Positions 2,603 to 26,263 of a stretch of 64,000 nucleotides of DNA are shown piece by piece (positions within the stretch are counted from its first letter, which is position 1; every line of letters begins with the position of its first letter). Source of the DNA: a virus (lineage: Duplodnaviria > Caudoviricetes). The stretch lies in IMG/VR virus record IMGVR_UViG_3300028591_000141, positions 1 through 64,000 of that record. One strand, given 5' to 3'. The notes below the pieces were generated by a model, which was not told where the DNA came from, did not search any database, and worked only from the letters and a program-made list of their open reading frames with translations. The position numbers and the translations under genes are program-made.

Positions 2603-2625
2603 TGCAGGTATTCAGTTCTTCGCCG

Positions 2626-3952: not shown

Positions 3953-3964
3953 GGTTTCACCGCC

Positions 3965-4291: not shown

Positions 4292-4308
4292 CCTTTCCGT
4301 CCCCCTTC

Positions 4309-4539: not shown

Positions 4540-4598
4540 GTTCCCCTTTCAAAGGTCTTATTCCCGGCGGCAGTCAAACCGCCGCCGGGTAATCGGTC

Positions 4599-5672: not shown

Positions 5673-5709
5673 AGGATTTTTCTCCTTTCATAGCTTTTGG
5701 TTTGTTGCG

Positions 5710-6354: not shown

Positions 6355-6368
6355 CTTCTATCCCCCGA

Positions 6369-6731
6369 TCAGGTTGCTCCGGTCGCGCCGGTAACACCCT
6401 GCACGCCGATGTTGGTCCGGAATACGATTCCGGGCAGCGCACTGTACAGCGCGGACACATAGGTCACTCCGCTGTGGGTCTGTGCCTTGGCAGCGTCGAT
6501 GATGCCCTGCACAACAGCCGCGCCGTTGGGATTCTCAGCAGTGTCCACGTCATACAGCAGAATGCCGATGGCGCCGGAACCAGTGGTGCTCTCTCCGCTG
6601 GCGTTCAGAGGCGTGCCCGCCTTCACGACCGTACCGCTTCCGGGGGTCGCAACCTTCACAGGAATGGCCTGGAAGTCCTTGCTGGCGAGGATCTCAACGC
6701 CGCCGCCAATCGTGGTCTCAGCATACTTCAT
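6369..6731 (-). CDS. Head decoration protein
   Basis: 'VVKAGTPL...AIGILLYDVD' motif; position between scaffold and capsid; Thr/Gly tail GVTGATGAT. Confidence 0.75.
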   Translation of the reverse strand: MKYAETTIGGGVEILASKDFQAIPVKVATPGSGTVVKAGTPLNASGESTTGSGAIGILLYDVDTAENPNGAAVVQGIIDAAKAQTHSGVTYVSALYSALPGIVFRTNIGVQGVTGATGAT

Positions 6732-6804
6732 GTCTTTTCTCTCCTTTCAAAAGAGTAAATATGTGTCCATCGGTTCAAGCCTTCAGGCTGAACCATCCAG
6801 CTTT

Positions 6805-7494
6805 TTACCGCATGTACCCCTTCAAACCGTCAACAACGGATTTCTCGCTTTCCGCGCGCCTTTTGCCCAGGTTCTTTGCGCGTTCAATTGCCGCTGCCTC
6901 TGCAGCGTCATCGCCGCCGTTCCCGCCGGATCCGGGTCCTGGAATCTTGCCAAACTCGATCCGCAGTGCCTTTTCTTTTGCAGTCCATGCCTGCTGGATC
7001 AGCAACAGCGCATTTTCGATGTTTTCACATCCGATCAGGCTTTCCGCAATCTTTCCGGCAGTATCCTCGTCCACGTTGAGTTTCCCCATCACAGACTTGG
7101 TGTTCTTGGCTTTCGCGACTTCCTTCCGGAGATCTTCCAGTTCCTTGGCCGCTTTTTCATCGGCTTCCTTCTTGTTGGCTGCGTCGATCTCTTCCTGGGT
7201 CATCTTTGCCTTCAGCTGCTTCTGCGCTTCGCCGAGCTGCCGCTTGTTGTCGGCCGCTTCGTGTGTGGCTTTGTCCAGCGCCGCTTTCATGCGGTCCATT
7301 TCAGCCTTCATCTGTTCCATCTGGGCGGCGGCGTTATCCCCGCCTTTATTCGGATCATCGCCACCGGCGCCGCCTTTGTTCGGATCGTCGCCGGCAGGAT
7401 CGTTTCCGCCTCCGGAAGGATTGTTTCCGTCTCCAGCAGGTTCAGCAAAAAACTGAAGTTTCATGGGTAAAATTCCGTTGCGCCATGTTTCCAT
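6805..7494 (-). CDS. Capsid scaffolding protein
   Basis: N-terminal 'KLQFFAE' Prp-type motif, G/D-rich linker, coiled coil; RBS AAAGGAGA. Confidence 0.85.
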   Translation of the reverse strand: METWRNGILPMKLQFFAEPAGDGNNPSGGGNDPAGDDPNKGGAGGDDPNKGGDNAAAQMEQMKAEMDRMKAALDKATHEAADNKRQLGEAQKQLKAKMTQEEIDAANKKEADEKAAKELEDLRKEVAKAKNTKSVMGKLNVDEDTAGKIAESLIGCENIENALLLIQQAWTAKEKALRIEFGKIPGPGSGGNGGDDAAEAAAIERAKNLGKRRAESEKSVVDGLKGYMR

Positions 7495-7520
7495 ATTTTG
7501 TTTCTCCTTTGCGTTTTATC

Positions 7521-7591
7521 GACTTCTCTGTCACTTCGTTTTGCGATTTACGTCTTCTCTGACGTTTTGCGATTTACGTCTTCTCTGACGT
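7521..7591 (-). repeat. 26-bp tandem repeat giving three AGAGAA-loop hairpins in scaffold leader
   Basis: TTTTGCGATTTACGTCTTCTCTGACG twice (7539-7590) plus a degenerate copy; stem ACGTC-AGAGAA-GACGT. Confidence 0.8.
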
Positions 7592-7657
7592 TTATTTCAA
7601 ACGGCATTCACCGTTTAAAACCTGATTCCGCGCTTTGGACGCATCAGCATCCATTTT

Positions 7658-8308
7658 TTAATCTTCCACGGATCGAAAGACCGGTCTCCAGAAGCATCTG
7701 CAATTCCAGTGCTTTGGCGGAATCTCATCGGTCCGGAAAATCTGCCCGTCATAGGCATGGCACTCTGTGCAAACTCTTTCGTCTCGCTGCGTGATCCACT
7801 CGATCATCTCTACCCCGGCATCCTCATATGCCTGCACCAGCGCGTAGTCCGTCATGTTAATTGCGTACTGTCCGAGTTGCCGGCTCCAATACCTCAGGGC
7901 TTTGTTAATTTCATAGTCCCTGTCCTGAGCCGCCTCCAGCGTTTCCGAAAGCCTGTAGGCCTTTCGCTCCGTCTCCGTGTCAAATCTGTACAGCGTTACA
8001 AAATCAGTTTCAGTAAGAACACGGTCGATCCAGTTATCGTCAATGGCCTTCCGTGCCTGTTTCTCTCCTTCCTCCCTGTCAAGCCCGCACAGGATCCATC
8101 CGTACATATATGCTTCGTACGCGACCTTTTTGTAACGTTTACGGGCGCGTTCAGCGCTCTTCCTGTAAACCGCCACAACAGTCCGGATGATGTTGACCTC
8201 GTCCCACTTTGCCATTTTCAGCCGACCAAACGCTTCCAGGTTCTCCCGGTTCATCGCTTTAATGGCTTTGTCGCACTCGGCGTAACAATTGACTGTCGTT
8301 TCCTCCAT
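7658..8308 (-). CDS. Minor head protein (SPP1 gp7 / Mu gpF-like)
   Basis: 'WITQRDERVCTECHAYDG...PPKHWNCRC'. Confidence 0.85.
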   Translation of the reverse strand: MEETTVNCYAECDKAIKAMNRENLEAFGRLKMAKWDEVNIIRTVVAVYRKSAERARKRYKKVAYEAYMYGWILCGLDREEGEKQARKAIDDNWIDRVLTETDFVTLYRFDTETERKAYRLSETLEAAQDRDYEINKALRYWSRQLGQYAINMTDYALVQAYEDAGVEMIEWITQRDERVCTECHAYDGQIFRTDEIPPKHWNCRCFWRPVFRSVED

Positions 8309-8311
8309 TTG

Positions 8312-10039
8312 TTACCCTCCGTACCTTGGAGTACTCCGCCTTCCCCGGTTCGCGCAGCTCAGGCTGTCATACACCTGGTTGGCTTCCTTCTTGATGAACT
8401 TCCGTCCGCACACCGGGCACTGCGCCCACTGGCCTTTCTTGCTCTCACGGGATGAACCGCCGGCGCCTTCATCGCCTTCTGCCTGCGCCTTAATTCCTTC
8501 AGCGCTCGTCGGGTCCGTTGTGTCGTCTTCCTTCAGCGGGATCCCGTCCTCGCCGACCCCGTTCATCCGGTCCAGCTCTTTCGCAAGCATCTCCTGGTAA
8601 TCGTCGTACATGATGGCGTCGCTTTCCGGATCACGGCTCAGATGGCTGAACTTAAACGCCTGTACAGCAGGCATTCCGGCACTGCGAAGCGTTGCAAAAC
8701 TCTGAGTCTTTACAAGCAGGTCCTCGTAACTCTGCCTCCAGAACCGCGGCTCAAGGTCGGAAATTTTCAGCCCTGTCAGTACGTTCTGCTGGTTACAGAT
8801 CTTCAGCACAACCTTCAGGAACTCTGTCTCTGCCTTCTTCCACATGTTCTGTGTCTGAAGCGCCCGGCCTTCTGCATGCCACCATCCGTTACGCATAATG
8901 ACAGCGCCGTTATTGCTGCTGTCTCCGTTGCTCGCGTCACCCTGCGAAGGCATGCCGACAATCTCCAGCACAGTCCTCTTCATATCGTTTACAAGGGTCT
9001 GTGTCTGGCTCTGGTCCAGTTGCTCGTTCAGGTAATACAGTTTCTTTCCGCCGTTTGTGCCGTTCTGCGTCGGAGGAAGCTGAATTGCGCCAAGATCTTT
9101 CAGCTTCAACAGGTCCTCACGGGTAATGTCCACGCCGTCGAAGACCATCAGCGCCTGAATAAACTGCTCAATACCGTCCAGCCGGTTGCTCTGCGTCAGG
9201 TTAATCGCGTCCAGAAGCGGAAGAACCACTTCAAACGCGCCCATATAGTCCGGGTTGCACGGATACTCAATCAGACTGACCATGCCAAAGTTGTGCGTGA
9301 CAGTCTTGCTTTTGTTAATCTGAAGTTTCCCGGCGATTTCCTCAATCGTGTACGTCACGTTTTTCGTATAAACCGTGTATTCCGGGTCGCTGTGCGGCAG
9401 CGTCTTGTACACATAAGTTACGCCGGCAACAACCGTCTTTTTCGCGTCGTTATGGCGGATTACAAACGTGTTTTCAACGTCCGGAACAGCAATCTCAAAC
9501 GGCGCCTCATCCAGGAATTCATCGTTATTCCCGATATCATGCCATACAAGCCTGTATGCAACGCCGCATGTAAACATCTTGTGAGCCAGCTCAAGGTCAA
9601 GCGTCTGCTTTCCCTCTGAAATCATCATGTCGTTGACCCTGGAAACCTTCTCTGGAATGTCACGTCTGCTGTCGTCCACACCCTTGTTCCCACGCCTGCT
9701 GACGTACTGGATCGGCTCTCCGGCAAACTCTGATTCCTTAAACGTGATAATCTCGTTCGCCAGGTTCTCAACAACCTTGTTGTTGATCTCATCGTTGTAC
9801 TTCTTTGTCCGCTCCAATACAGGCTGTATTCCACGTTCGTACTTCTGGAGATAAATAATCTCTGCGCGATTCTTGTTGTGGACGGTCAACGCTTTCTGCA
9901 ACACGTCAACCACATTGTCCATGGTAATTTCGCTCTCGCTCGTGAATATCTGCCTGCGTCCGTGCAGCCCAGTGGAGTAATCCGGATCAATCCGGCCGTC
10001 TGTCACCGTCGTGTCATAAGCCTCAAGACTTTTACGCAT
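8312..10039 (-). CDS. Portal protein, SPP1 gp6-like, with C-terminal extension
   Basis: 'NNKVVENLANEI...GEPIQY', 'FEVVLPLLDAINLTQSNRLD'; start taken at MRKSLE after GGAGGGAGG. Confidence 0.9.
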   Translation of the reverse strand: MRKSLEAYDTTVTDGRIDPDYSTGLHGRRQIFTSESEITMDNVVDVLQKALTVHNKNRAEIIYLQKYERGIQPVLERTKKYNDEINNKVVENLANEIITFKESEFAGEPIQYVSRRGNKGVDDSRRDIPEKVSRVNDMMISEGKQTLDLELAHKMFTCGVAYRLVWHDIGNNDEFLDEAPFEIAVPDVENTFVIRHNDAKKTVVAGVTYVYKTLPHSDPEYTVYTKNVTYTIEEIAGKLQINKSKTVTHNFGMVSLIEYPCNPDYMGAFEVVLPLLDAINLTQSNRLDGIEQFIQALMVFDGVDITREDLLKLKDLGAIQLPPTQNGTNGGKKLYYLNEQLDQSQTQTLVNDMKRTVLEIVGMPSQGDASNGDSSNNGAVIMRNGWWHAEGRALQTQNMWKKAETEFLKVVLKICNQQNVLTGLKISDLEPRFWRQSYEDLLVKTQSFATLRSAGMPAVQAFKFSHLSRDPESDAIMYDDYQEMLAKELDRMNGVGEDGIPLKEDDTTDPTSAEGIKAQAEGDEGAGGSSRESKKGQWAQCPVCGRKFIKKEANQVYDSLSCANRGRRSTPRYGG

Positions 10040-10262: not shown

Positions 10263-11897
10263 TTAAAATAACCGCTCAAATACGCGAACCTGCCCCTGTC
10301 CGAACGTCTGCACATAGTCCGCCAGCATCGCCAGACTATCCGGTCCGTCATCGTGCTTTGCCTTCCCGTTCATTGTCCAGCTGCATACATTGTTCAGGAA
10401 CGTCCTGTATTCCTTGTCTTTGACCACGCTCTGGTCCTTAAATAGGAAATGTTCCTTCACAAACGGGCTTGCCATAATGATCTTCGTCTCTTTTTGCTGC
10501 GTCGTGTACTTTGTAGTCAGTTTCGTCCGCCCGCCGCGCCGCTTTACTTCTTCCTGCACGCTCTGCGCAACCCTGCCGCCTGCACTGTTCGACTCAAACC
10601 GCCCCATATGCACGTTGTGCTGAAGCAGTTTCGTCACGATCTCCGCTTCCACGTTCTCCGGGTTCGCGTTATTGAACACCACGTCCTCAATGTAGTAATC
10701 CTGGCCGTACTGATACGCAATCGGCATGGAGCAGTAGTCGATGCCCCGGTCCTTCGTATCGCACACGCACAGGATCGCGTCCGGTTCCCGGTCCGGAAGC
10801 TCAAAGTACCTCCGCAGCTCATCCGGATGATACAGCAGGCCTTCCCGCTCAATCGGCTGGTTCATGTACAGCGCCCTCCAGTTCGCGTCATCCATAATCC
10901 CACGCTGCTCAATGTAGAACGCCGTGCTGAATCCCACCCCATACAGGTAGTCAAAGTTGCTCTCGTCATTTTCATTCAGCGCCGGAATCGCAATAAACTC
11001 CGCCCTGTCGCTTCCTTCGTACTGCCGCTCCAGTCTGCCCAGAATATCATTGACGCTCCACCGGGTGGCTATGTGCAGTTCCTTGCAGTGATCCCCGATC
11101 TTCCGCTGCCGCAGGTCCGTCGTATACATATCCCACAGTTTGTCAAGCTGTTCCTTGCTCAAAGCGACCTCCAGTCCCTTGATCAGGTCGTCGCAGTACA
11201 ACAGCTGCCCCGCCCGGTACAGACCGGCGTTACCGGATCCGATTGACGTAAACTCCAGCGTCTCAAACCTCTTCGGTTTCCCCAGGTCAATCCGCAGGCT
11301 CTTCGCGTTTGTGTTTGATACGACCGTTTCCGGAAACACGTCATGCCACAGATATTCCCCGTGACCGTCAAAGATCCGCAGGCACTCGTCATATACACCG
11401 CGCACAAACTCATTATTGTGGCTTCCGGTGAGGTTCGGCTCTTCCGGCCACCTTCCGGCTACCCACGTCAGCAAAAATATTGCCAGCGTACTCTTGCCAA
11501 CGCCAGGGGGAAGGCTGATGCCCAATATGTCCAGAAGGTTGTCCATCAGCTTCTGTATGCTGTTTACAACCCGAAGCAGCTGTCTCCTCCTTGGAAGGTA
11601 GAACCGTTTTCTCGGCGCGCGGTTTCGCTCAATGTACTGACAGTACGCGTCAAACATCACCCGCGAATCAATCAGCAGGCTCTTGTAATACGTGTCTTCC
11701 AGGCTCTCCGCAATCCTCACCGTCGCACAGCCGCGCATGGATTTTGCGATAACCTTTCGCATCTGTGCATTGATGTCATGCCAGCCGGTCTCCCCTGCCT
11801 GCGTATGATCGTAAATTATCGAAAGAGCATCCCTGAACACAACCGGGTCGTCCGGATGCGCGTCAATGTATCGCTGAATCTTCTCAATCTCCGTCAT
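10263..11897 (-). CDS. terL: Terminase large subunit
   Basis: Walker A 'SLPPGVGKS', 'LYCDDLIK', nuclease 'KHDDGPDSL'. Confidence 0.92.
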   Translation of the reverse strand: MTEIEKIQRYIDAHPDDPVVFRDALSIIYDHTQAGETGWHDINAQMRKVIAKSMRGCATVRIAESLEDTYYKSLLIDSRVMFDAYCQYIERNRAPRKRFYLPRRRQLLRVVNSIQKLMDNLLDILGISLPPGVGKSTLAIFLLTWVAGRWPEEPNLTGSHNNEFVRGVYDECLRIFDGHGEYLWHDVFPETVVSNTNAKSLRIDLGKPKRFETLEFTSIGSGNAGLYRAGQLLYCDDLIKGLEVALSKEQLDKLWDMYTTDLRQRKIGDHCKELHIATRWSVNDILGRLERQYEGSDRAEFIAIPALNENDESNFDYLYGVGFSTAFYIEQRGIMDDANWRALYMNQPIEREGLLYHPDELRRYFELPDREPDAILCVCDTKDRGIDYCSMPIAYQYGQDYYIEDVVFNNANPENVEAEIVTKLLQHNVHMGRFESNSAGGRVAQSVQEEVKRRGGRTKLTTKYTTQQKETKIIMASPFVKEHFLFKDQSVVKDKEYRTFLNNVCSWTMNGKAKHDDGPDSLAMLADYVQTFGQGQVRVFERLF

Positions 11898-13161: not shown

Positions 13162-13428
13162 TTACTTCTCCTCAGTGTCTTCTTCGTCCCTGCTGTTTTC
13201 TACTTCATACCATCCGCTCCGAAGCGCTACATCCTTCGGAACCAGCATGATCTTGTACCCGAACACGCCGAGCATCTGATTCAACACGTTCGTGCTGAAG
13301 TTTCTCCTATTCAGTCTGCTCGCTAACGCGTTCGGCTGCAGTCCGAGCTTCTCTGCCAGCGCGTTAAACCGCACTCCGTTCTTACCCATCAGTTCCCTGA
13401 TAATCTCGTTCGTCTTCATCTCGTTCAT
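13162..13428 (-). CDS. Cro/XRE-like HTH repressor
   Basis: 'FNALAEKLGLQPNALASRL' HTH; own promoter at 13454-13482; start re-assigned from ORF track. Confidence 0.75.
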   Translation of the reverse strand: MNEMKTNEIIRELMGKNGVRFNALAEKLGLQPNALASRLNRRNFSTNVLNQMLGVFGYKIMLVPKDVALRSGWYEVENSRDEEDTEEK

Positions 13429-13453
13429 CTTCCTCTCGTGTCCTTTCATGATG

Positions 13454-13771
13454 ATGATATCACTTTTATGTGACCTTGTCAACACTTTTTTGTGACTATT
13501 TTGGCTTTTTTTATTTTTGGGATGCTGAGGAGGGTAAGGATGCCGGGGCGCCTGGGGCCGTATATCCCCGCGGGGCGGATCCGGTCCGCCGCGCCTGGCC
13601 AGGTTCCCGGCGGCATATAGCCAGGCGCCGGAACCATGCCGACGCGGAAACGGACGACCGTTTTTTTGTTTATATAATGGAAGAAAAAAATAATTCATAA
13701 AAAAGTGAGTAAAAAGTATTGACAATCATATTTTTGTGAGTTAATATTATCATGCAATCACAAATAAGTGA
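13454..13771. promoter_or_regulatory. Divergent SigA promoters with five palindromic operators TCAY-W6-GTGA
   Basis: Minus TTGACA-17-TATCAT (13482-13454); plus TTGACA-17-TAATAT (13719-13747); operators at 13460, 13482 (ACAC variant), 13695, 13726, 13758. Confidence 0.8.
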
Positions 13772-13800
13772 TTGACAATAAAAAATCGGAGGGCATGAAA

Positions 13801-14775
13801 ATGGAACTTATAACAAAAGACACACTGTCAACAATCAAGGCACTTGACGATGGATCCGCCGTATTGAAACTGTATAACAATGCCGCTTGCGTATTTGAAA
13901 AGACGTATAAATCTTTTCGCGGTGCAAAACAGGCGGAAAAATTCTATATTTCCCACGGTGCACCGGGAAACAATAAAATTGTTTGCAAGTGGTGTGGTTG
14001 GACGGGAACACGCGGCGAACTTGATTTTGACGAACACGACGCGCCGTCGTTTTGCCCGGTTTGCGGAAAAAACGAATTCAAAAAAAGCGACAAAAAAGGA
14101 TATGATATCAAAAAATTATTTGACGTCGTAGATAATGCAATTAATACGGACAGGGCCGTATTCCATGAGCCGCGCGACAATAGCAAGTTAAAAGGTATTC
14201 CATCGTTTAACCTTGCGCCGGGCCGGACCTGCAGCGCGGCGGCATGCGCGCATTGCTTAAAGGAAGGATGTTATGCAGTAAAAAACGCATGCTGTCACGG
14301 ATACGATATAGAAAACAATTATTGCCTTAAGGCCTGGACAGAAAACACGGCGCTTGCGATTAATCATCCGCGTGAACTGGAAAAGGCGCTTGACGCCTGG
14401 CTAACTAAAAACAGGCCCGCGCTTTTCCGTATTCATTCAAGTGGGGATATGTTTTCGGTAGAATACGCCCGCATGTGGCGCCGCATTGCAATGCGGCACG
14501 CGGAAACGCGTTTTCTGGCCTTTACGAAACAATTTGACGTTGTGCGGCACGTGCATTTTTACAAGCTCGCGAATTTTGAGCTTGTTTTGAGCGGCTGGAC
14601 GGGCGTACGCGTCCCGGACGACTTGCGGAAACATTATCGCGTTGCGTGGTGCAATGATGGACAGGAAAAGCGTATTCCGGCGGACGCGATACACTGTCCC
14701 GGCGATTGTAACAAGTGCCGCGCATGTTGGTACTTGTCCAGGCTGCAAAAAGACAGCTATTTTGACAAGCACTGA
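13801..14775 (+). CDS. GP88-like Cys-rich protein with N-terminal zinc ribbon
   Basis: 'SFNLAPGRTC...C..C...GCYA', 'FRIHSSGDMFSVEY', 'FTK', 'CPGDCNKCRACW'; CKWC/CPVC ribbon. Confidence 0.7.
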   Translation: MELITKDTLSTIKALDDGSAVLKLYNNAACVFEKTYKSFRGAKQAEKFYISHGAPGNNKIVCKWCGWTGTRGELDFDEHDAPSFCPVCGKNEFKKSDKKGYDIKKLFDVVDNAINTDRAVFHEPRDNSKLKGIPSFNLAPGRTCSAAACAHCLKEGCYAVKNACCHGYDIENNYCLKAWTENTALAINHPRELEKALDAWLTKNRPALFRIHSSGDMFSVEYARMWRRIAMRHAETRFLAFTKQFDVVRHVHFYKLANFELVLSGWTGVRVPDDLRKHYRVAWCNDGQEKRIPADAIHCPGDCNKCRACWYLSRLQKDSYFDKH

Positions 14776-14856
14776 GCCCGGACCCGGCCGGGCCCGCGTC
14801 CGGCCGGGTATATATACCACGTAAAAAAACGACTAAAAAAAGCGGAGGGAAAAACA

Positions 14857-15147
14857 ATGGATATTAATACAATTATTGCAAACTACCTGCAGGAAAAGGC
14901 CGCGGAGGCCGCCGCAAAAAAACGCGCGGAGGCAATGAAGGCACTTATACTTGACCATGCTAAAAACGCGGATAATTTTACGACAGACGTTTACACCGTT
15001 GTTATAAAAACGTCGTCAAGTGTACGCCTGGACACGGCGGCGCTTTACAGAGACTTTCCGGATATAAAAGACACGTACGGAAAAACAACGACGTCAAAAA
15101 CAGTTAACGCCGTTATAACGGCGGACGCGGAAAAGAAAAGCGCTTGA
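14857..15147 (+). CDS. Small coiled-coil protein of MGE type
   Basis: RBS GGAGG; 'RLDTAALYRDFPDI..TY.KTTTS' resembles C-terminal tail of YqaJ-like exonucleases. Confidence 0.65.
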   Translation: MDINTIIANYLQEKAAEAAAKKRAEAMKALILDHAKNADNFTTDVYTVVIKTSSSVRLDTAALYRDFPDIKDTYGKTTTSKTVNAVITADAEKKSA

Positions 15148-15202
15148 TTGTAACGGGCCCGGGCGGAGCGGATCCGCCCGGAGCCGCGGCGCTATATATG
15201 AA

Positions 15203-15646
15203 ATGGAGGTTTTGAAAATGTATTATACCGTTTACGACGTGCACGAAAACAGGAACACGAAAAGCTTTTTCGGGTATGAAATAGTTGTTGACGGCGAGCA
15301 CGGCCGCGATACTTTCCCGGGCAAGTGGGACCCGGCGGAGGCTAAACGCCATTATATGCAGGGCCTGCCGTGGTCCGAACCACTGAAAAACGCGCACACG
15401 TATATTATCTGTCTTTCCGGCAACTTTTACGCGCTCGCGGCGGACGCGTTTATGACTACAGTGTACGCAATTGGTCCGGACCGGCGCGGCCTGAATGACG
15501 CGGAATATTTCACGGGCTCCGTAAAGGAAAGAAACGCCGCCATCCGCTCGGTATGCGTTCCGCACGACTACAAAACCGCGCGCCGCATTGCAGAAGAGAA
15601 CGGCATTTATTCCGGACAGCTTTACGCATACGAAACGGAGGTGTAA
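15203..15646 (+). CDS. Hypothetical protein (island)
   Basis: RBS GGAGG (likely start at MYYTV); operon context. Confidence 0.65.
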   Translation: MEVLKMYYTVYDVHENRNTKSFFGYEIVVDGEHGRDTFPGKWDPAEAKRHYMQGLPWSEPLKNAHTYIICLSGNFYALAADAFMTTVYAIGPDRRGLNDAEYFTGSVKERNAAIRSVCVPHDYKTARRIAEENGIYSGQLYAYETEV

Positions 15647-15650
15647 ACAT

Positions 15651-15914
15651 ATGAAAATGTTATTGACGGCGGACCGGATCCGCACCGTTGTTGCGGACGC
15701 CCGGACCGAAAAAGATATAGAGCTGTCGCTCCGCTCGCACAAAATAAAGTTTTCCTACGATACAAGCGCCGGGTTTATGGCCTTCAGAATTCCGGCCCGC
15801 TCCGGTACGGTCCTGGTATATCGGACCTGTAACCGCTCCACCCCTTTTGCGGTCAGGTGCTCCGCTCCGGCCGTCTATCCGTACACACTGCCCCGTCTCG
15901 CCTGTGGTGATTGA
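15651..15914 (+). CDS. Hypothetical protein (island)
   Basis: RBS GGAGGTG before ATG 15651. Confidence 0.6.
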   Translation: MKMLLTADRIRTVVADARTEKDIELSLRSHKIKFSYDTSAGFMAFRIPARSGTVLVYRTCNRSTPFAVRCSAPAVYPYTLPRLACGD

Positions 15915-15931
15915 CAAGGGAGGTTCAGACC

Positions 15932-16183
15932 ATGGGAAGAAAGTACACTGGCCTTTTTGAGGATGAAGTGGCGGAGCTGCTCCGCTCCGCCGCTCCGGGT
16001 GCCGTGATTGTTTCCGGTCCGTTTTCCTGGAGCATGGCGCACACGCTCGCGGAGGACGGCATATATACAAGCGGTGCCGGTTATGTGACCGAATATATAA
16101 ACGGGATCCGCTCCGGTATCCGCTCCGCCGCTTCTCTTGTTTTCCGCCTTGCGCATACTGATTTTGAAATTATGGAGGTATAA
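15932..16183 (+). CDS. Hypothetical protein (island)
   Basis: RBS GGAGGT before ATG 15932. Confidence 0.6.
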   Translation: MGRKYTGLFEDEVAELLRSAAPGAVIVSGPFSWSMAHTLAEDGIYTSGAGYVTEYINGIRSGIRSAASLVFRLAHTDFEIMEV

Positions 16184-16187
16184 AGCA

Positions 16188-16934
16188 ATGTATAATTCCG
16201 CTCCGTATACCACGCCCGGCGGCCGCGTTTACCGCCTGTATACGCACCTTGCCGACCGTCCGCACCTGCTCATTGCAGGCGCCACCGGTTCCGGTAAAAG
16301 CGTGACTATAAACGGCATTATATACGCGCTACTGGCCACCCGTGCCCCGTCCGAATGCGGTTTTATCCTGCTGGACCCGAAAAAGGTGGAGCTTGTCCAG
16401 TACGCACGCCTGCCGCACGTCGTCCGCTATGCGTCGGAACCGTCCGACATGATCGACGCGCTAGAATATGCCGTCCTGGAAACGGAGCGCCGCTTTTCAG
16501 AAATGCAGCGCGCCGGCGTCCGGGAATATTCCGGCCCGGACCTGTACGTGATCGTCGACGAGCTCGCCGACCTCATGGTAACACAAAAGAACGTCGCCCT
16601 GCCTCCGCTCCAGCGCCTGGCACAGATCGGCCGCGCCGCTCATGTGCACGTGATCGCCTGCACGCAAAACGTTATGGCCGTAACAATCCCGACCGTCCTG
16701 AAATGCAATTTTCCGGCCGTTCTAGGCCTGCGTACGGCCACGGCGGCACAATCCCGCTACCTGATCGCTGCACCGGGCTGTGAGACCCTTCCAGACCCGA
16801 AAAAGACCGGTAAAGGCTGCGGGTACCTCCGCGACGGTGCTGACCTGGACCGTTATGAACTCTACATGTACCCTGAAGAAGAAATCACCCGCATGATTAA
16901 TTACTGGACCGCCGGCGCCCGCCGTGCCAGCTGA
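16188..16934 (+). CDS. Stand-alone FtsK/SpoIIIE-family ATPase domain
   Basis: 'HLLIAGATGSGKS', 'LLDPK', 'YVIVDELADL', 'QIGRAAHVHVIACTQ'; no TM or gamma domain. Confidence 0.88.
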   Translation: MYNSAPYTTPGGRVYRLYTHLADRPHLLIAGATGSGKSVTINGIIYALLATRAPSECGFILLDPKKVELVQYARLPHVVRYASEPSDMIDALEYAVLETERRFSEMQRAGVREYSGPDLYVIVDELADLMVTQKNVALPPLQRLAQIGRAAHVHVIACTQNVMAVTIPTVLKCNFPAVLGLRTATAAQSRYLIAAPGCETLPDPKKTGKGCGYLRDGADLDRYELYMYPEEEITRMINYWTAGARRAS

Positions 16935-16948
16935 TGGGAGGAATTAAC

Positions 16949-17149
16949 ATGACGCCTGAAATGCTGTATGAAGAAACGATTTCGTTCCTGGCTACCTGCC
17001 TGCTGGGCGAAGGTGACCCGGAACCGATGACCGCTGAGGATGCCGCCTATACTATGTCCAACTGGACCGCGGAAGGCATCGAATATCCGGAAGGTATGAC
17101 GCCGGATCTGATGTCCGCCGTATGGAATTGCATGATCGCTACCATGTGA
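16949..17149 (+). CDS. Small acidic hypothetical protein
   Basis: RBS GGAGGA; D/E-rich with no K or R; followed by hairpin plus T-tract at ~17163-17197. Confidence 0.6.
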   Translation: MTPEMLYEETISFLATCLLGEGDPEPMTAEDAAYTMSNWTAEGIEYPEGMTPDLMSAVWNCMIATM

Positions 17150-17362
17150 TACACCCGCTCCGCCACCGCTCCGGGATCCGTTCCCGGGGTGGTTTTTCTT
17201 TGTTCAAATACGCTCGTTTTTGGCTCTCGTCTGTTGTCCTGTTTTCCTACTTAAATCTTCCCTGTTTTGATCTGTTATTTTTGTCTTTACTTATGTCTAT
17301 TTCTACTTGCCACAATCCCCCGTTTATGGTATCATATTTCCATGAAGGGAGGTTTACGCCTT

Positions 17363-17923
17363 ATGAAAATCGGATATGCCCGCGTTTCCACTCAAGACCA
17401 GAACCTGGACCGCCAGCTGGACAACCTCCGCGCCGCCGGTTGCGAACGGATCTTCAATGAGAAGATGACCGGAACGAAATCAGACCGGCCGGAGCTCAAG
17501 ACCATGCTGCTTACGCTCCGCCCCGGTGACATCCTCGTCATCGATTCCTTCTCTCGTCTCAGCCGCTCCACAAAGGACCTGCTTGATCTCGTCGACCGGT
17601 TGACCGGGATGGGCGTCCACCTTGTCAGCCTGAAGGAAAACCTGGACACAACCACGGCCACGGGGAAACTGATGCTGACGATGCTTTCCGCTCTGTCTCA
17701 GTTTGAGCGTGACCTGATCGCTGAGCGCACGGTTGACGGTCTGAAGGCCGCCCGGGCCCGCGGTCGCTGCGGAGGCCGTCCCCGTGCCGGAACGGATAAG
17801 GACCGTCAGCAGGCGCTGGCCATGTACGACGCCAATGTGATGAGTAACGCGGAGATCGCCGCTCATTTCAACGTATCGCAATCGACGCTCAGCCGCTGGA
17901 TCCGCAGCAGGAAGCAGGGATAA
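17363..17923 (+). CDS. Small serine recombinase (resolvase/invertase)
   Basis: 'KIGYARVSTQDQNLDRQ...DRPEL...SRLSRS', C-terminal HTH; AT-rich upstream region 17200-17340 (possible res site). Confidence 0.93.
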   Translation: MKIGYARVSTQDQNLDRQLDNLRAAGCERIFNEKMTGTKSDRPELKTMLLTLRPGDILVIDSFSRLSRSTKDLLDLVDRLTGMGVHLVSLKENLDTTTATGKLMLTMLSALSQFERDLIAERTVDGLKAARARGRCGGRPRAGTDKDRQQALAMYDANVMSNAEIAAHFNVSQSTLSRWIRSRKQG

Positions 17924-17944
17924 TCCCCCTGCTTCTTTTTTTAT
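17911..17944 (+). terminator. Intrinsic terminator after resolvase
   Basis: GAAGCAGGG...CCCTGCTTC followed by TTTTTTT. Confidence 0.7.
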
Positions 17945-18025
17945 ACCCTGAAGCAACCTGTCACGTCGTAAGGTATATATATTATTATTTATTCGTATAA
18001 GTAGTATATATACCCATGCCCAGGC

Positions 18026-18580
18026 TCACTCGTCCTCGTCCGGGATCGCTTCCTCCAAACGCTTGCGTGCCTGTTCCGCATCCAGTCCCTGCATCGGATT
18101 GTTCGGTGTGACCACCACGTCCGTCTGGTCCTTGTAAGCATGGTTGTTTTTGAGCAAAAATATTGCCGCGACCGGATTGATTTTTCCGTCAGCCATAGTC
18201 TGAGTCAATAGCTGGTTCATTATGCTATAGGCTTTTTTTATAGCGTAACGAGACCGCTCTGGTATATTTCCACATTCCACATTGTTTGACCACCGCCACA
18301 ACTGCATTCTATTCGTATTAAAAGCAAGAGCCAACGACTCAACGGTAGGCTTCATATCGTGTTTAATCATATATTTAAGGGTCTTATTAATTCGTTCTTC
18401 AACAGCATCAGGATCGTTAATATCAACTGGCCCAAAGCTTGACAAACTCACAGCGTCCGTAATCATACGAGCCATATCTCCAGGTTCGTACTGTGGTAAG
18501 TATTCTTCGCTTCGTTTTGGCCGTTTGTGTTTCTGTTTTGACACGATATCAACAACTTTATTTTCCGTGTCCTTATCCAT
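18026..18580 (-). CDS. terS: Terminase small subunit (P22 gp3-like)
   Basis: 'PTVESLALAF..NRMQLWRW' HTH; 'AAIFLLKNNHAYKD'. Confidence 0.8.
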   Translation of the reverse strand: MDKDTENKVVDIVSKQKHKRPKRSEEYLPQYEPGDMARMITDAVSLSSFGPVDINDPDAVEERINKTLKYMIKHDMKPTVESLALAFNTNRMQLWRWSNNVECGNIPERSRYAIKKAYSIMNQLLTQTMADGKINPVAAIFLLKNNHAYKDQTDVVVTPNNPMQGLDAEQARKRLEEAIPDEDE

Positions 18581-21298: not shown

Positions 21299-21592
21299 AT
21301 ACGGTGTCATACGGTGTGTTTTGAAATCCGTATAACTCTGCAAGCGTTGATTTATAATGGTTTTGAGTATGCTTTATACGGATTATACGGATTATACGGT
21401 GTTATTTTTATCTCATACGCGCGAGAGCGCGGGAAAACTTATATTTTTTCTTTTTTTCTTTGCAAAAAGCGGTATCTGTTCGAGAAAATCCGTATAATCC
21501 GTATAGGGTGTCCGGAGAGCAAGGAAATATAAGGATTTATCGACATACGGTGTGCCTCTCGACACCGTATAGACACCGTATATGCACCGTAT
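21299..21592. repeat. Iteron array ATACGG/CCGTAT (probable phage A origin)
   Basis: About 12 copies in direct and inverted groups around an AT-rich core, directly downstream of the DUF927 gene. Confidence 0.7.
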
Positions 21593-21596
21593 AAAA

Positions 21597-23498
21597 TCAG
21601 AACGGCATGGATTCTGACTCAACAGCAACATATCCTTTGTACTCCTCCTGTTCCGACTTCTCTTCCTCCGGCAGTTTGATCCAGTAGTGCGGCACCTGCT
21701 TGCCGTTGATCACAATGGACCTGGTTGGCCTGTTGTTCTTGCTTCCCGTGCCGTAGAAGGTATCCTTCAGCATGTTCTTCCGTCTTGCCCAGTCAATAAA
21801 TGCGCCGGCTGAGAACCCCTTGTTCTTCAGCAGGTCGTCAAACACACTCTTGTTAATGCATACATAACTGACGCCGTGGTCTTCCTTATACTGCCCCCAG
21901 CACTCGCCCAGGGCAGAGTCAGACGTATCAAACTTACGCGGGTTTGCGGCGCAGAATGCCACCAGCCACTGGTAGCACCGCAGGTTTACGTCTGTTTCTG
22001 TCCTGCTCACAAGGAAGCCCTTGATGTCCTCAACGGTCAGCGCGTGCTTGTCCTTGAAGATCGCCTTCGTGGCAAGCATGTCTGCCGCAAGCAGCACGGA
22101 CGCGGACAGCACCTGCTTGTCGTGTATGTCTTCCTGCATCAGTTCTGAATAGTACTTCCTCTGGAGCGCCCTTACAGCCTCCATAACGCCGTCTTTCCGG
22201 AGCATCTGTATGAACTTCGGACCGGCATGCCCGTAGTTCTCTTTCAGCGTGTTTGCGACAGTTCGCGCATCGTCGAAGAGCGGCAGCCCTCCGTAGTTTA
22301 CCTCGATGGTACGCGCCACTGCGCCGCCTCCGGAGTTGCTCTGCGTGATAGGCATCTCTCCTGTGGTAATGATGCATGAACTCCAGTGTTTCTGAACCTG
22401 GAGCCCGCCTTCCTTTGCGCCGCGTCCCTTGCTTGTTCCTTCGCACAGCATGTAGATCAGGTCGTCAAAGGTTTTCCGGTCTGACACGACCTGAAGTTCG
22501 TCAAACAGGATCGGCAGGTTGCAGCAGAACGACGCATATAACTCCATGCTGACCTTTGTCCCGGAGAACGTCTTGATGTACCTGCCCACGTCAGGATTGC
22601 CCCATACAGACGCGGCCAGCATCAGCCCGACCGTCTTGCCGCATCCGGCCTCTCCCCACAGATGGACAAAGAAAGGAAGCCCGCCCATCACCTGCACGAG
22701 CGGCGCTGCAAAAGCGGCAGCCAGCGCGATCCGTGCCGGCACGCTCTCCGCTTTCCTCACCTCTTTGGCAAGGCTCATCCATGTTTCCTCACTGCCTGTG
22801 GGTTTAAACTCTGTGTACATCCGCAGCAGCTCCGGGCTGTCCCCGTCATAGCTTACGTCCTTAACGTACGGCATGAACTGCCCGTCCTGGAGCCATCCCA
22901 TGTGGCTGACACTGTTCTGCCTGGGCAGCGCGTCATAGTTCAGGCTCTCAAGTTTGCTCATAAATTTAACAACCTCCTTGGCGTTCTCGCTATTCACGTC
23001 CACACCCTGCTTTGACAGTCCGATGATCTTCTGAGCGGAAGCAAGATGCTCACGGGAAACCGTCAGAAATTTCCACGGATCCTGTCCGCGCTGGTATGCG
23101 ATCTCAAGCTTTTCCTCGAACGTTTCAATATTGGTTACACGCTTCACCGGCATCAGCGGATGCGATATAACCTCAACCTCGGCGCCCATCTCATTCAGGC
23201 GTGACACGCCGTACTCATCCGCGACGTACTGTCCGCAGTCCAACTGGGTCGGCTGTTTCGGGAACATCGTCTGGTTGCTGCCAAGGATGGTTGCCTTCGG
23301 ACTTTTGCTTTCGACGTAGGCGTTCCACGTCTTCATGAATCCGGTGACCTTCAGTTCCTTTGCCTTTGCCTGCATCTTCTGCAGCAGGATCTGAAGGATG
23401 AACTTGTTGTCCTTCTGCTCGTACAGCCATTCATATGGCCGTTCGGAAAGAAAGTCTTCAAGCGTCCAGTTAGGGATCAATTGCGTTGCTTCTGACAC
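21597..23498 (-). CDS. DUF927-type replication helicase
   Basis: 'HMGW', 'FFVHLWGEAGCGKT', 'LFDELQ', 'IITTGE', 'ENYGHAG'. Confidence 0.85.
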   Translation of the reverse strand: MSEATQLIPNWTLEDFLSERPYEWLYEQKDNKFILQILLQKMQAKAKELKVTGFMKTWNAYVESKSPKATILGSNQTMFPKQPTQLDCGQYVADEYGVSRLNEMGAEVEVISHPLMPVKRVTNIETFEEKLEIAYQRGQDPWKFLTVSREHLASAQKIIGLSKQGVDVNSENAKEVVKFMSKLESLNYDALPRQNSVSHMGWLQDGQFMPYVKDVSYDGDSPELLRMYTEFKPTGSEETWMSLAKEVRKAESVPARIALAAAFAAPLVQVMGGLPFFVHLWGEAGCGKTVGLMLAASVWGNPDVGRYIKTFSGTKVSMELYASFCCNLPILFDELQVVSDRKTFDDLIYMLCEGTSKGRGAKEGGLQVQKHWSSCIITTGEMPITQSNSGGGAVARTIEVNYGGLPLFDDARTVANTLKENYGHAGPKFIQMLRKDGVMEAVRALQRKYYSELMQEDIHDKQVLSASVLLAADMLATKAIFKDKHALTVEDIKGFLVSRTETDVNLRCYQWLVAFCAANPRKFDTSDSALGECWGQYKEDHGVSYVCINKSVFDDLLKNKGFSAGAFIDWARRKNMLKDTFYGTGSKNNRPTRSIVINGKQVPHYWIKLPEEEKSEQEEYKGYVAVESESMPF

Positions 23499-24090: not shown

Positions 24091-24501
24091 TTAATCATTT
24101 GACAGTTTGACATCAAACCATCCGCTGACAATGTTCTCCGGATACAATTTGATTTCATATTTGTACTTGTTTACTTCTTTTGTTTCGATCTGCTCAACAA
24201 TGTATGTTGTATCCTTTGACAGGTGGGCATAATTCAGAATGTATTCCCCTGGAGACTTTTCTATCGTAATGTTCAGGTCTCCGTCACTGTCTGTCTTAAT
24301 GGACAGAAGTCCTGTGATCTGCATCATTGTCTTGTCTGTCCGGGTGTTCAGCACTGTGATTCTCCGGCGCACGTTGAAGTCATCTGCCTCACGCTGGAGA
24401 TTGTGCCGGACGTTGTCTGCCTGCCTGCATGAAGACAGGACAAATACCATCACAATCGTAATTAAAACCAGCATTAAAGTCTTCCATTTCTTCATGTTCA
24501 A
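24091..24501 (-). CDS. Phage lipoprotein
   Basis: Signal peptide with lipobox LSSC; 'EADDFNVRRRITVLNTRTD'. Confidence 0.75.
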   Translation of the reverse strand: MNMKKWKTLMLVLITIVMVFVLSSCRQADNVRHNLQREADDFNVRRRITVLNTRTDKTMMQITGLLSIKTDSDGDLNITIEKSPGEYILNYAHLSKDTTYIVEQIETKEVNKYKYEIKLYPENIVSGWFDVKLSND

Positions 24502-24961
24502 ACAGCTCCTTTCAGTGCGTTCACAATATCATTACCTCTGTAAATTACAATCATGCTCGGAAACGGTGCGTTCCATTTCGCGTTTCCGTATTTCAACCTG
24601 CCTCTGACAAACCTGATTTCCGCCTTCCCGTATACATACTCATGAAACCATTTCGTGTCTGTACGCGCTGGAATCAGCATGACCGCAGTACCCCCACTAT
24701 GGAATGTTCAAGGCACTTGCGGCACCATGCGTCCATGCCTTTCCCGTACGGAGGATTGCACCACACTGTCTCGCCGGTCCAGTCATGTAAAAGTCCGTCC
24801 TGTTCCTTCGTGAAGTACCGGCTACATTTCGCGTTCTCTGCCGTTGCGCACACATCCAGGGTGAACCTGAATTCATCGTTCAACCTGTCAAACAAATCCT
24901 TCGGCGTTTCCCATTCATCCGTAGAAGAGGAAAACATGCCGTCGTTCAGGTACTTACTCAA
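24498..24961 (-). CDS. Phage N6-adenine DNA methyltransferase, split by -1 frameshift at G5 (24691-24695)
   Basis: 'DEWETP...FTLDVCA...VWCNPPY' in ORF ending 24674, continued by 'GTAVMLIPARTDTKWFH...APFPS' in -1 frame. Confidence 0.8.
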
Positions 24962-26263
24962 ATCTGATAAAGTCCTTTCCGTATATCTGATTACAATCCT
25001 CAAACACTTTCCGCATTCCGAGCCCTTCCTTGCTCGGCACCCAGATCTTCTTCGGGTTCCAGTTTGTCCAGTCTCCGTCCATTTTCGAAGCTGCCGGATC
25101 GTAGTTCTTGTTATCCACCCACTGCCCGCCGTTCATGCAGTACTCGTACTGCCGCGGATGCGTCTTTGCCAGTCGCTGAAACCGTGTCTCTCCCTTTTCC
25201 AGGTGCGCGCCGAATCCGCAGAAAACGCATCCAGTCCGTTGGCATCCGGTGCACTTCAGTTTGCATTCAATACCCGGGAGCGGCTCGTAGTAGAATCCGT
25301 TTTCATCCACCGCCATGACGTCTCCGTATACGCTGCATATATCAATGTGGTACATCCGGATGTATCGGAGCACGTCCTGCTCAGTCCACAGGCTCAGCGG
25401 CTGGCTGACTTTCTTTCCCTCAAATGAGTTGCATCCATGCCGGACCCATGCCTGTGCTCTGATACGGCTCTCTTCCGCCATAGTACCGATGTATGGATAC
25501 CGTTTCGTTTTCCGCTGGTATTTACCCATCGGGCTTTTCTTCATCACGCTGCAACACTGGTGGCTGATCATGAACTGTGTTTCCTGGCACAGCGGAAGCC
25601 ATTTCAGTTTGTTGAACTGGCTCTTTGCCGAGGAGCTGACGCCTGAACCTGTTGATTCTTCTGAGCTCTCTGGTGCTGTACCACCCCCCCCATGAATTTT
25701 CCGGGACAGGCGTTTGCCCGTTGAGGTTTGCCCGCCGCCATCCGGTTCTGCCTCGCAGCGATTCTTTCCGTATCGTCCCGTTTCCCATGGAGTTCCGTCC
25801 GGCTTCGTTCGTAGTGGAGTGTAACTGCTCTGTCCGGACATCTCTTTCCGCTTGAAAGAAGGTCGCTGTACCCCCCCCCATATTGATTTTCAAGGCTTTG
25901 CGGGACGATACGTCTTGCGAAATGGATCGCTTCCGCGACTTCCTTGCTGATGATCGGATAGCCATATGTGCTGATCACCTCGCTGAAACTCATCTTCGGC
26001 CGGACGAATTCGGCACCCATGCTCCTGGCAAACGCCTGAATCTCCGGATACTCTAGCCCTGTGTTTGCGAACACCAACGGAACGTCCGGATACATACCGT
26101 GCACCAGGTCTGTCAGTACTGTGCTGTCCTTTCCTCCTGAAAAAGAAATGCACACGTTCCCGTCAAAGTGTTCGTACCATTCCCGGATCCGTTGCTCCGC
26201 CATCGTGATCTTTGCCTGCAGCGGGAGGCTCTGAAGCTGGCGAAGCAGTATCCTGTCTCTCAC
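24954..26263 (-). CDS. PAPS-reductase-family (PP-loop) protein, split by -1 frameshift between G9 and G8 tracts
   Basis: 'SFSGGKDS...FANTGLEYPE' in 25604-26263; 'CCSVMKK...IGTMAEES...W...DV...RTGCVFCGFG' in 24954-25841. Confidence 0.85.

Follow-up and report, generated by a model that had tools for sequence, protein, structure and literature searches.

A strand-polar array of CCGYTCC words between the terminase genes of a rumen Clostridia phage family, a possible Chi-like signal

Introduction

Chi is AGCGG in Bacillus subtilis and GAAGCGG in Staphylococcus aureus. Short asymmetric words that recur many times in one orientation are also a feature of mycobacteriophages, where they occur as the SAS of Cluster K, located at a fixed distance from start codons, and as the stoperators of Cluster A, bound by a known repressor. 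The clt locus is organised as a local cluster of repeats beside a translocase gene. Chi itself occurs in clustered, one-orientation form in Escherichia coli phage LLS and Pseudomonas phage MD8, two lambdoid phages of the "no Rec module" kind (Genome Res 2025, PMC12315714).

We analysed a stretch of 64,000 nucleotides, referred to here as the window, which comprises positions 1 to 64,000 of the IMG/VR record IMGVR_UViG_3300028591_000141, a member of the Caudoviricetes. The initial annotation described a one-strand cluster of AGCGG sites in this DNA and proposed that it serves as phage-borne Chi for AddAB entering from about 13.6 kb, an idea for which LLS and MD8 now provide precedents, or else as a KOPS-like motif for the encoded FtsK. 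Here we define the repeated word, follow it through the relatives of the phage and weigh the enzymes and proteins that could read it.

Results

The array lies in an island of small early genes between terS and terL, beside the DNA-packaging genes (Table 1). The 248-residue ATPase encoded in the island consists of the PF01580 motor only, with no membrane, alpha, gamma or wHTH domain detected, and its closest match is the FtsK motor domain (2IUU, 5e-29). Next to it, the g15651 family is a small orphan group with 52 representatives. Its predicted fold (pLDDT 77) has two helices and four strands and gave no PDB match and no match to a DNA-binding fold. Two of the three motif copies in this gene are at positions conserved across homologues, where they are read as C-CGY-TCC (Arg-Ser). 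The serine recombinase is an optional module found in about 10 of 25 relatives, and 23 of the 25 keep the terS family on the right-hand side of the island. A PHROGs scan of about 35 larger ORFs revealed no recombinase or exonuclease module except the 96-residue protein resembling the tail of RecE.

Table 1. Coordinates of the array and of the surrounding features in the window.
Feature	Position	Strand	Remarks
Terminase large subunit (terL)	10263..11897	-	left of the island
HTH (Cro/CI-like) regulator	13162..13449	-	transcribed away from the island; start at about 13449 deduced from the translation
Promoter of the HTH gene	13482-13454	-	diverges from the island-operon promoter
Sigma-70-like promoter of the island operon, TTGACA-17-TAATAT	13719..13747	+	consensus match only
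GP88-family protein (PF17338), first island gene	13768..14775	+	6e-15
96-aa protein like the C-terminal part of RecE-like exonucleases (phrog_434)	14857..15147	+	5e-8
CCGCTCCG	15165..15172	-	in the intergenic gap of two island genes; contributes one arm to a GC-rich hairpin at 15159-15181
Island gene, 147 aa, no family assigned	15203..15646	+	
g15651 family, small conserved orphan, 87 aa	15651..15914	+	three motif copies
Island gene, 83 aa	15932..16183	+	four motif copies, two codon phases
Motor-only FtsK/SpoIIIE-type ATPase, 248 aa	16188..16934	+	PF01580
Acidic protein, 66 aa, last operon gene	16949..17149	+	
Intrinsic-terminator-like hairpin	17165..17193	+	made of the last motif copies, then a T run
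Small serine recombinase (resolvase/invertase)	17267..17923	+	
Probable terminase small subunit (terS)	18026..18580	-	weak GP3_package and phrog_606 matches
Core array	15797..17184	+	11 CCGCTCC, of which 8 are CCGCTCCG, plus one CCGTTCC, all on the plus strand
CCGCTCC copies	15797, 15833, 15862, 15982, 15990, 16108, 16120, 16198, 16605, 17155, 17166	+	
CCGTTCC copy	17178	+	
Span of the initial annotation	15544..17172	+	19 CCGCT, 1 AGCGG

We re-checked every position of the initial annotation. All 19 plus-strand CCGCT (15544 to 17166) and the lone AGCGG (16070) are where they had been placed, and the count of 11 extended CCGCTCC copies is likewise correct; the only minus-strand CCGCTCCG of the contig, at 15165, had escaped that list. 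Across this span, 2000 dinucleotide-preserving shuffles gave 3.57±1.85 CCGCT with a maximum of 10, 0.28±0.54 CCGCTCC and 0.10 CCGCTCCG, as compared to 19, 11 and 8 observed, and none of the shuffles reached any of the observed values. That the enrichment might vanish under codon-preserving shuffles had been named as the outcome that would speak against a signal. In the genes between 15203 and 17149, it persists: per-gene synonymous-codon shuffles yielded 7.2±2.0 CCGCT and 1.6±1.1 CCGCTCC against 17 and 9 observed (0/2000 reaching either value), and shuffles of codon order yielded 5.3 and 0.5. An artefact of codon usage is thereby ruled out. The span is the richest 1.6-kb segment of the 98.8-kb contig, and outside the island the word occurs close to the expectation from composition, with no genome-wide skew beyond it. 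The contig-wide ratio of CCGCT to AGCGG (200:91) was discarded as a signal, since base composition predicts this excess. CCGCT lacking the CC tail is not enriched (8 observed, about 5.7 expected). The selected unit is the 7-8-mer CCGCTCC(G) with its variant CCGTTCC, and the 5-mer CCGCT is not the unit. Thus, the plus-strand array proposed initially is real, but its minus-strand equivalent is not AGCGG as such: the unit is CCGYTCC(G) on the plus strand of the window and reads 5'-(C)GGARCGG-3' on the strand encoding terS and terL, and the complement of the variant, GGAACGG, breaks the AGCGG core.

To see how the array behaves in evolution, we examined relatives of the locus, which were retrieved via their FtsK gene, so that the presence of FtsK beside the array is not independent evidence. 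Arrays are present down to 61% FtsK identity: about 19 of the 25 non-redundant relatives have 8 to 27 CCGCTCC or CCGTTCC words in the same island and on the same strand. In all relatives the G-rich strand is the coding strand of terS and terL. The remaining 6 of the 25 retain the FtsK gene with a weak array or none. Copy number is maintained while individual sites come and go. CCGTTCC is the prevailing form in some arrays, and others combine it with CCGCTCC. The FtsK tree does not separate C-type, T-type and array-poor loci, which alternate along it, as exemplified by the C-type locus L011, which is sister to the T-type locus L022. Some arrays are pure intergenic (CCGTTC)n tandems; perfect blocks of 15 to 20 hexamer units also occur, in loci L013 and L015, where ORFs run through the blocks as VPVP, RSRS or SAP tails. 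In locus L018 the copies are found in paralogous intercistronic units that precede ribosome-binding sites. Enrichment of the word, pooled over 22 loci, amounts to 16.7x within the 2.5 kb that precede FtsK and 10.6x between FtsK and terS; in terS itself and the adjacent minus-strand genes, to which the word is antisense, it is still 6.7x, and it drops to 2.5x and then 1.4x further out. Across the 25 relatives no island protein family co-varies with array strength, and a comparison of the PHROG content of array-poor and array-rich islands revealed no recombination or anti-nuclease gene that sets them apart and no function that replaces the array.

The perfect blocks with ORFs reading through them in L013 and L015 might suggest a decayed microsatellite, in which the CCGYTC hexamer expands by replication slippage and its remnants drift without function. 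We consider this highly improbable, as exact 7-8-mers stand 30 to 120 bp apart with unrelated conserved coding sequence between them, copies fall at homologous codons in homologues of 38 to 80% identity, copy number is kept despite turnover, and the gene contexts of the arrays differ among relatives. What emerges is a genuine strand-polar DNA signal, under selection at the level of DNA and shared by a family of uncultured phages of rumen Clostridia. As the initial annotation had noted for several genes and intergenic DNA, copies occur in two codon phases as well as between genes; among the relatives they additionally form pure tandems and lie antisense in terS, and the array is independent of the local direction of transcription. 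No helical phasing was detected (10.5-bp periodicity 0.06) and no fixed spacing, nor do the copies share a hairpin, being base-paired no more often than control positions. Taken together, two codon phases, intergenic, antisense and tandem copies and the lack of phasing and of a hairpin give the array the appearance of a polar DNA signal that an enzyme reads while moving along. Outside the family, the three-motif clusters among the IMG/VR matches listed are for the most part tandem repeats within coding sequence, spaced by multiples of 3, in unrelated phages, and are uninformative here.

A signal in the RNA of the island operon, or one coupled to its transcription, would take the form of CCGYUCC in the mRNA and could correspond to C-rich tracts resembling Rho-utilisation sites, to antitermination boxes or to intercistronic sites of processing or translation control. 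All copies within the island are indeed on the sense strand, the intercistronic units of L018 lie ahead of ribosome-binding sites, the operon terminator is made of the last copies, and (CCGUUC)n is C-rich and G-poor. Yet the 6.7x enrichment extends into terS and the minus-strand neighbours, where the word is antisense, many copies sit inside translated codons, and there is neither a shared secondary structure nor an Rfam match (none reaching E<0.29), which makes an RNA-level role very unlikely. A hairpin or structured RNA was rejected on the same pairing and Rfam results. Iterons of a replication origin were also rejected, because the array is unphased and a better candidate is available in a cluster of direct and inverted iterons at 21299-21593, beside the primase-helicase gene.

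Alternatively, the copies could form a field of independent sites for a sequence-specific DNA-binding protein of the phage or the host, which could act as a silencer, insulator, regulator of the early island or accessory to packaging or partition. Cooperative binding would be in keeping with the degeneracy of the core, which has Y at position 4, and with the perfect blocks of 15 to 20 hexamers; sites are conserved inside g15651, and the island has its own regulator and promoter. Against such a protein stand the strict one-strand polarity, which symmetric binders do not need, the absence of phasing or fixed spacing over 1.4 to 3 kb of coding DNA, and the fact that no candidate binder co-varies with the array. 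We therefore rate this alternative as rather unlikely.

Given the ATPase gene in the island, the polar 8-mer could instead be read by the motor-only FtsK-like protein, with or without a small island adaptor, so that phage DNA is moved one way. The array always lies 0 to 4.6 kb upstream of the FtsK-like gene, or within it, on the same strand, and it forms a local cluster beside the translocase gene, as clt does. The word has 7-8 bp, is G-rich on one strand, polar and unphased, as are KOPS, SRS and TRS, and the 248-residue ATPase is nearest to the FtsK motor domain. Nevertheless, the protein is an FtsK_SpoIIIE motor alone, lacking the gamma/wHTH domain; g15651 has no match to a DNA-binding fold and no adjacent protein has a recognisable one; no island protein family follows array strength; in six relatives that have FtsK the array is weak or missing; and the two array types, C and T, are intermixed on the FtsK tree. 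The retrieval of the loci through FtsK also deprives the co-occurrence of independent weight. Consequently, the KOPS-like alternative of the initial annotation is weak, and a translocase array appears unlikely to us. The more specific proposal that the array is the KOPS- or clt-like cis partner of this ATPase through a recognition module of a new kind, distinct from the gamma domain, is distinctly unlikely; such a system might serve to take up or pass on the phage genome, starting at its packaging-proximal end.

As the leading reading we tentatively favour a Chi-like bank for the AddAB helicase-nuclease of the host. In this scheme some 10 to 25 Chi-like sites would be placed in the first kilobases adjoining the start of packaging. 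AddAB would enter a free or terminally redundant end of the phage DNA, travel against the packaging direction and meet the G-rich word from its 3' side, upon which it would halt degradation and load RecA. The genome would thus be protected, and recombination-dependent circularisation or replication would be favoured in a phage without a recombinase of its own. AddAB as the reader, the locations of the DNA ends and the benefit to the phage are inferred in this scheme. The strand geometry proposed initially is correct, in that the minus-strand G-rich word is met 3'-first by an enzyme moving towards higher coordinates. The complement of the C-type word, CGGAGCGG, ends in AGCGG, and GGAGCGG is one base away from GAAGCGG. 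AGCGG is absent from GGAACGG, the T-type complement, so the reader must tolerate R at this position, which counts against Chi, as do the near-expected frequency of the word elsewhere in the contig and the six relatives whose arrays are weak or missing.

The array clusters adjoining terS, and the G-rich word reads from terS to terL, that is, in the direction of packaging. This matches the orientation in which Chi is "active" relative to packaging in lambda and LLS (PMC12315714). Because terS is on the other side of the array, a pac site linked to terS is at least as likely as a DNA end at about 13.6 kb. A cos site upstream of terS, if present, would put the array at the wrong end for the geometry of LLS. 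Logan contigs from public runs, which carry no read starts, break at 13681, around 16261-16266 and 17951-17974, and at 18121; these breaks are mosaic boundaries of co-occurring strains and not virion ends. Unitig depth is about 1.7x higher over 13.9-18.57 kb, which fits a mixture of strains and terminal redundancy alike. Clostridium phage Maintenon, the nearest named phage in terms of TerL, likewise has a gap between terS and terL; it lacks the FtsK island and is of no help in inferring the packaging mode.

For Chi, the initial annotation had suggested checking whether GGAGCGG is over-represented and replichore-skewed in the host chromosome. We examined this in two candidate-host MAGs, G002 and G001, which are tied to the phage by binning only, as they hold related phage contigs, and which were sampled in part (about 450 kb and 170 kb, with 452 kb for G002). 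In G002, GGAGCGG occurs 86 times on the G-rich strand and 31 times on the other, where Markov models predict 75 and 26. Among 42 words of the same composition it comes 28th by skew, with a composition-corrected z of 0.5. G001, equally linked through binning, gave a similar result. Thus, the word is neither over-represented nor additionally skewed in these binning-linked genomes, which lends the Chi reading no support. With a GC content of 44%, compared to 55% in the phage, G001 is a poor fit as a host. Both MAGs encode AddB-like ORFs (E 1e-79 in G001 and 1e-50 in G002, below the family cut-off) that align with B. subtilis AddB. The G002 protein retains T44 and E48 and is altered at the equivalents of R70 and W73, so that a pocket of the AGCGG type is not implied. 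A search with the FtsK protein across 400 genomes of the order of G002 matched only G002 itself.

Discussion

Should the word prove to be Chi in an uncultured lineage of rumen Clostridia, the array would reveal a host recombination signal that otherwise goes unrecognised. It would then carry over to AddAB hosts the "Chi-rich phage" strategy, which was described in 2025 from hosts with RecBCD, and provide a simple sequence marker that links such phages to their hosts. Banks of Chi by the entering or packaging end would limit both AddAB-dependent degradation and the capture of CRISPR spacers. With a phage protein as the reader instead, the array would represent a directional cis-element that is new and linked to the FtsK-like ATPases, which are widespread in phages and of unexplained function. 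Either way, the family lends itself to direct tests of the question through its natural variants, which comprise C-type, T-type, tandem and array-free loci.

Among described systems, LLS and MD8 resemble the array in having a dozen or more short G-rich words, nearly all on one strand, which occupy a few kilobases adjoining the packaging region, fall in genes as well as between them and read in the packaging direction, in phages without a recognisable recombination module. LLS and MD8 infect hosts with RecBCD, for which the word is the proven Chi, whereas here the host is a putative AddAB host and the word a candidate Chi. In LLS the cluster lies upstream of cos, at the last-packaged end, while the array described here is downstream of terS, between terS and terL; it is also tighter than those of LLS and MD8 and includes pure tandem hexamers and two variants.

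In Staphylococcus phage K (KF766114, Kayvirus), 20 GAAGCGG fall within the 8.5-kb terminal repeat, and the 41.5 kb that follow contain none. The likeness consists in a word that differs by one base and is confined to small early genes, which in phage K lie at the genome terminus, and in a Firmicute host of the AddAB type, putative in the case of the array. In phage K, however, both orientations occur (13 plus, 7 minus), as suits a repeat present at both ends, and the terminal repeat is mapped, in contrast to the single orientation of the array.

KOPS, SRS and the TRS of clt, associated with FtsK, SpoIIIE and Streptomyces TraB, respectively, are polar 8-bp G-rich words of FtsK-family motors, and the TRS copies cluster beside the translocase gene, much as the array lies beside the gene of the FtsK-like ATPase. 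Those motors carry a gamma or wHTH reader domain that the phage ATPase lacks, and KOPS and SRS are distributed genome-wide and skewed towards dif, while the array is local. Finally, the SAS and stoperators of mycobacteriophages share with the array the many copies of a short asymmetric word in one orientation; unlike SAS, the array keeps no fixed register to genes.

A polar word is enriched between terS and terL

Positions 15544-17172 carry on the plus strand a dense array of the word CCGYTCC(G), of which CCGCTCC is the C-type and CCGTTCC the T-type. The initial annotation had listed 19 plus-strand CCGCT sites here against a lone AGCGG at 16070; all 19 positions and the single opposing site were verified, 11 of the former being CCGCTCC, and the copies do fall into several genes (codon phases 1 and 2) as well as into intergenic DNA. 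In 2000 dinucleotide-preserving shuffles of this stretch the observed counts were never reached (CCGCT 19 versus 3.6±1.9, CCGCTCC 11 versus 0.28). The enrichment also survives the codon-preserving shuffles that had been named as a test able to refute it: with synonymous codons exchanged within each gene, 17 CCGCT compare with 7.2±2.0, and 9 CCGCTCC with 1.6±1.1 (0 of 2000 shuffles). While the array is thus enriched as claimed, AGCGG/CCGCT is not its unit; CCGCT without the CC tail occurs at expectation, and the true unit is a 7-8-mer. CCGCTCCG is present 16 times on the plus and once on the minus strand of the whole contig, with nine plus copies within 15797-17166, and in the rest of the contig, beyond the island described below, the word shows no marked excess and stays near composition expectation. 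The contig-wide excess of CCGCT (200:91) arises because the plus strand is C- and T-rich.

Genomic context of the array

The array lies in an island, a plus-strand operon of early genes that is flanked by the probable terS and terL and whose transcription leads away from the gene of an HTH regulator. The operon encodes a GP88-family protein, a 96-aa RecE-tail-like protein, the products of three small orphan genes, an FtsK/SpoIIIE ATPase and a 66-aa acidic protein. A contig from another sheep-gut sample fuses 17195 to 17951 and so is without the serine recombinase; recurrent mosaic breaks are seen at 13681, 16261-16266, 17951-17974 and 18121. In the probable source run, exact-match unitig depth is 24-31 over the island and terS (13900-18570) and 16-17 in the flanks (11.5-12.8 kb and 18.55-19.3 kb), the raised depth reflecting either a mixture of strains sharing the island or terminal redundancy.

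Features of the window and of the contig it belongs to
Feature	Position	Strand	Remarks
terL	10263-11897	minus	
GC-rich block	13520-13660		
g15651	15651-15914	plus	small conserved orphan gene of the island, 87 aa
FtsK/SpoIIIE ATPase		plus	island operon; 248 aa, motor-only
Operon terminator	3' end of operon		built from the last motif copies
Small serine recombinase	17267-17923		optional, after the operon; PF00239, 2e-45
Probable terS	18026-18580	minus	weak GP3_package match
Iteron cluster	21299-21593		
Primase-helicase gene	21597-23498	minus	
Recombination directionality factor	24091-24501		
Two adjacent ORFs	24674-25841	minus	ParB-like or methyltransferase-N-terminal domain (phrog_111) and PAPS-reductase-like domain; pair similar to IbrB/IbrA
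455-bp direct repeat	27768-28222 and 61308-61762		99% identity
~10-bp repeats	29686-29852		
Helicase gene	29854-31152	minus	
Tyrosine integrase	77157-78314 (contig)		

The window represents the first 64 kb of one 98,779-bp virus record from sheep gut or rumen metagenomes, a contig in which two phage units are present. Between the two copies of the 455-bp direct repeat lies a 33.5-kb unit that encodes a terminase, portal, tape measure and serine integrase of its own; the other ~64 kb, referred to as phage A, carries the array and agrees in size with complete relatives of 57-79 kb. The record is either a two-phage co-integrate or a chimeric assembly via shared segments. Its ends (1-873 and 97907-98779) agree at only 87%.

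The array is unlikely to be a replication origin: a classical iteron cluster with the direct and inverted repeats TTATACGGA, GACACCGTATA and AATCCGTAT occupies the gap directly 3' of the primase-helicase gene and is the likely site at which replication of phage A starts. The equivalent place in two relatives, L020 and L028, has related TACGG-type repeats. The ~10-bp repeats GGAAACCAA and GGAAACCGAT, which adjoin the helicase gene, are the probable origin of the second unit.

The array is conserved among related phages

Using the FtsK-like protein as a query, we retrieved 31 IMG/VR loci; two Clostridiales MAGs yielded the same contigs. The gene order terL ... HTH, island with FtsK, terS is kept among these relatives, and CCGCTCC or its transition variant CCGTTCC is the top over-represented 7-mer in most of them, down to 61% FtsK identity. 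Their arrays comprise 8-27 copies in 1.5 kb, nearly all on the FtsK strand, with the consensus (T/C)CCGYTCC(G)(G), and are weak or absent in six relatives (L016, L020, L023, L025, L032 and L033). One locus (L013) carries a pure intergenic tandem, (CCGTTC) x ~20, and in another (L018) the copies are located in paralogous intercistronic units. Two sites in g15651 are retained at homologous codons as C-CGY-TCC (Arg-Ser), a frame in which the Y position is therefore synonymous; the remaining sites are gained and lost, with copy number maintained. Neutral microsatellite decay, which would leave both the exact words at homologous codons and the kept copy number unexplained, is a highly improbable source of this pattern. 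We conclude that this is a real, conserved and selected array of a polar DNA word.

At the island's left edge, from the HTH/terL side to the first island gene, relatives carry long purine-rich tandem arrays (L018 2123-2428; L005 3386-3599 and 4548-4762; L013 1-330), for example (GCAGGAGGAA)x30 or 49-bp units of CAGGAT, where the window has the GC-rich block alone. A cargo-accepting gap between terS and terL appears characteristic of this terminase lineage; in Clostridium phage Maintenon (L077, 5480-10518), the nearest named phage by TerL, the two genes stand ~2.6 kb apart, with small genes and two tRNAs in between.

The word has the properties of a signal for a translocating enzyme

Regional enrichment was assessed for the plus-strand word against same-composition words, pooled over 22 loci. 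It amounts to 16.7x upstream of FtsK, 5.6x within FtsK and 10.6x from FtsK to terS; in terS and the adjoining minus-strand genes the word is antisense and yet enriched 6.7x, and farther out the value drops to 2.5x and then 1.4x. The polarity is strongest in the kilobases adjoining terS, and the antisense enrichment makes it a property of the DNA and not of the mRNA. This weakens an RNA-level role, and we consider an RNA-level or transcription-coupled signal very unlikely; in 367 folded motif-centred windows the motifs paired as control positions did, and Rfam returned zero matches for the array. No helical periodicity was found in the spacing (phase coherence 0.06 at 10.5 bp). A word that lacks phasing, is strictly polar and is selected for density is of the type read by a translocating enzyme, whereas a static binder would need none of these properties; that a putative DNA-binding protein reads the array is unlikely.

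The translocating enzyme could be the phage's own FtsK-like motor, with the array as a KOPS-like signal, as had also been proposed. The ATPase is a genuine FtsK-type motor (2IUU, 5e-29), but a gamma or wHTH domain was not found in it, C-type, T-type and array-poor loci are intermixed in the FtsK tree, and no island protein tracks array strength among the relatives compared. That array and gene occur together is inherent to the sampling, the loci having been retrieved via FtsK. We regard a signal for this motor as unlikely, slightly more so than a DNA-binding protein. The g15651 product belongs to a small orphan family, and its predicted fold (moderate confidence) has no PDB match.

A tentative Chi-like reading and its comparison with known phages

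Chi, at which AddAB stops and RecA is loaded, is AGCGG in B. subtilis and GAAGCGG in S. aureus. The complement of the word, CGGAGCGG, has AGCGG at its end, and GGAGCGG differs from GAAGCGG by a single base. AddB-like genes are present in both candidate-host MAGs, and a PHROGs search of phage A's larger ORFs revealed no recombination module. The missing AGCGG core of the T-type variant and the only partly conserved Chi-pocket residues of AddB count against this reading. The suggestion that GGAGCGG is the host Chi was not borne out. In the candidate-host MAGs G002 (452 kb covered) and G001 (172 kb), which are linked to the phage by binning only and of which G001 has a mismatched GC, the word is neither over-represented nor extra-skewed versus same-composition words. 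A Chi-like signal for AddAB is the most plausible reading of the array, which we hold with somewhat less than even confidence.

The G-rich word reads from terS to terL. If packaging started at a terS-linked pac and ran towards terL, the array would lie within the terminal redundancy of the first headfuls and would face the last-packaged end; a DNA end at ~13.6 kb, as originally proposed, would, alternatively, give the same geometry as in the Chi-rich phage LLS. In Staphylococcus phage K (L200, KF766114), the annotated 8,486-bp long terminal repeat (1-8486) contains 20 GAAGCGG (13 plus, 7 minus) and the 41.5 kb following it none, a clustering from which we infer that Firmicute phages accumulate the Chi of their host in early-gene blocks at the genome terminus. 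In lambda and LLS, the same orientation is the active one relative to packaging (PMC12315714), and as in these two phages the G-rich word here is oriented along the putative packaging direction.
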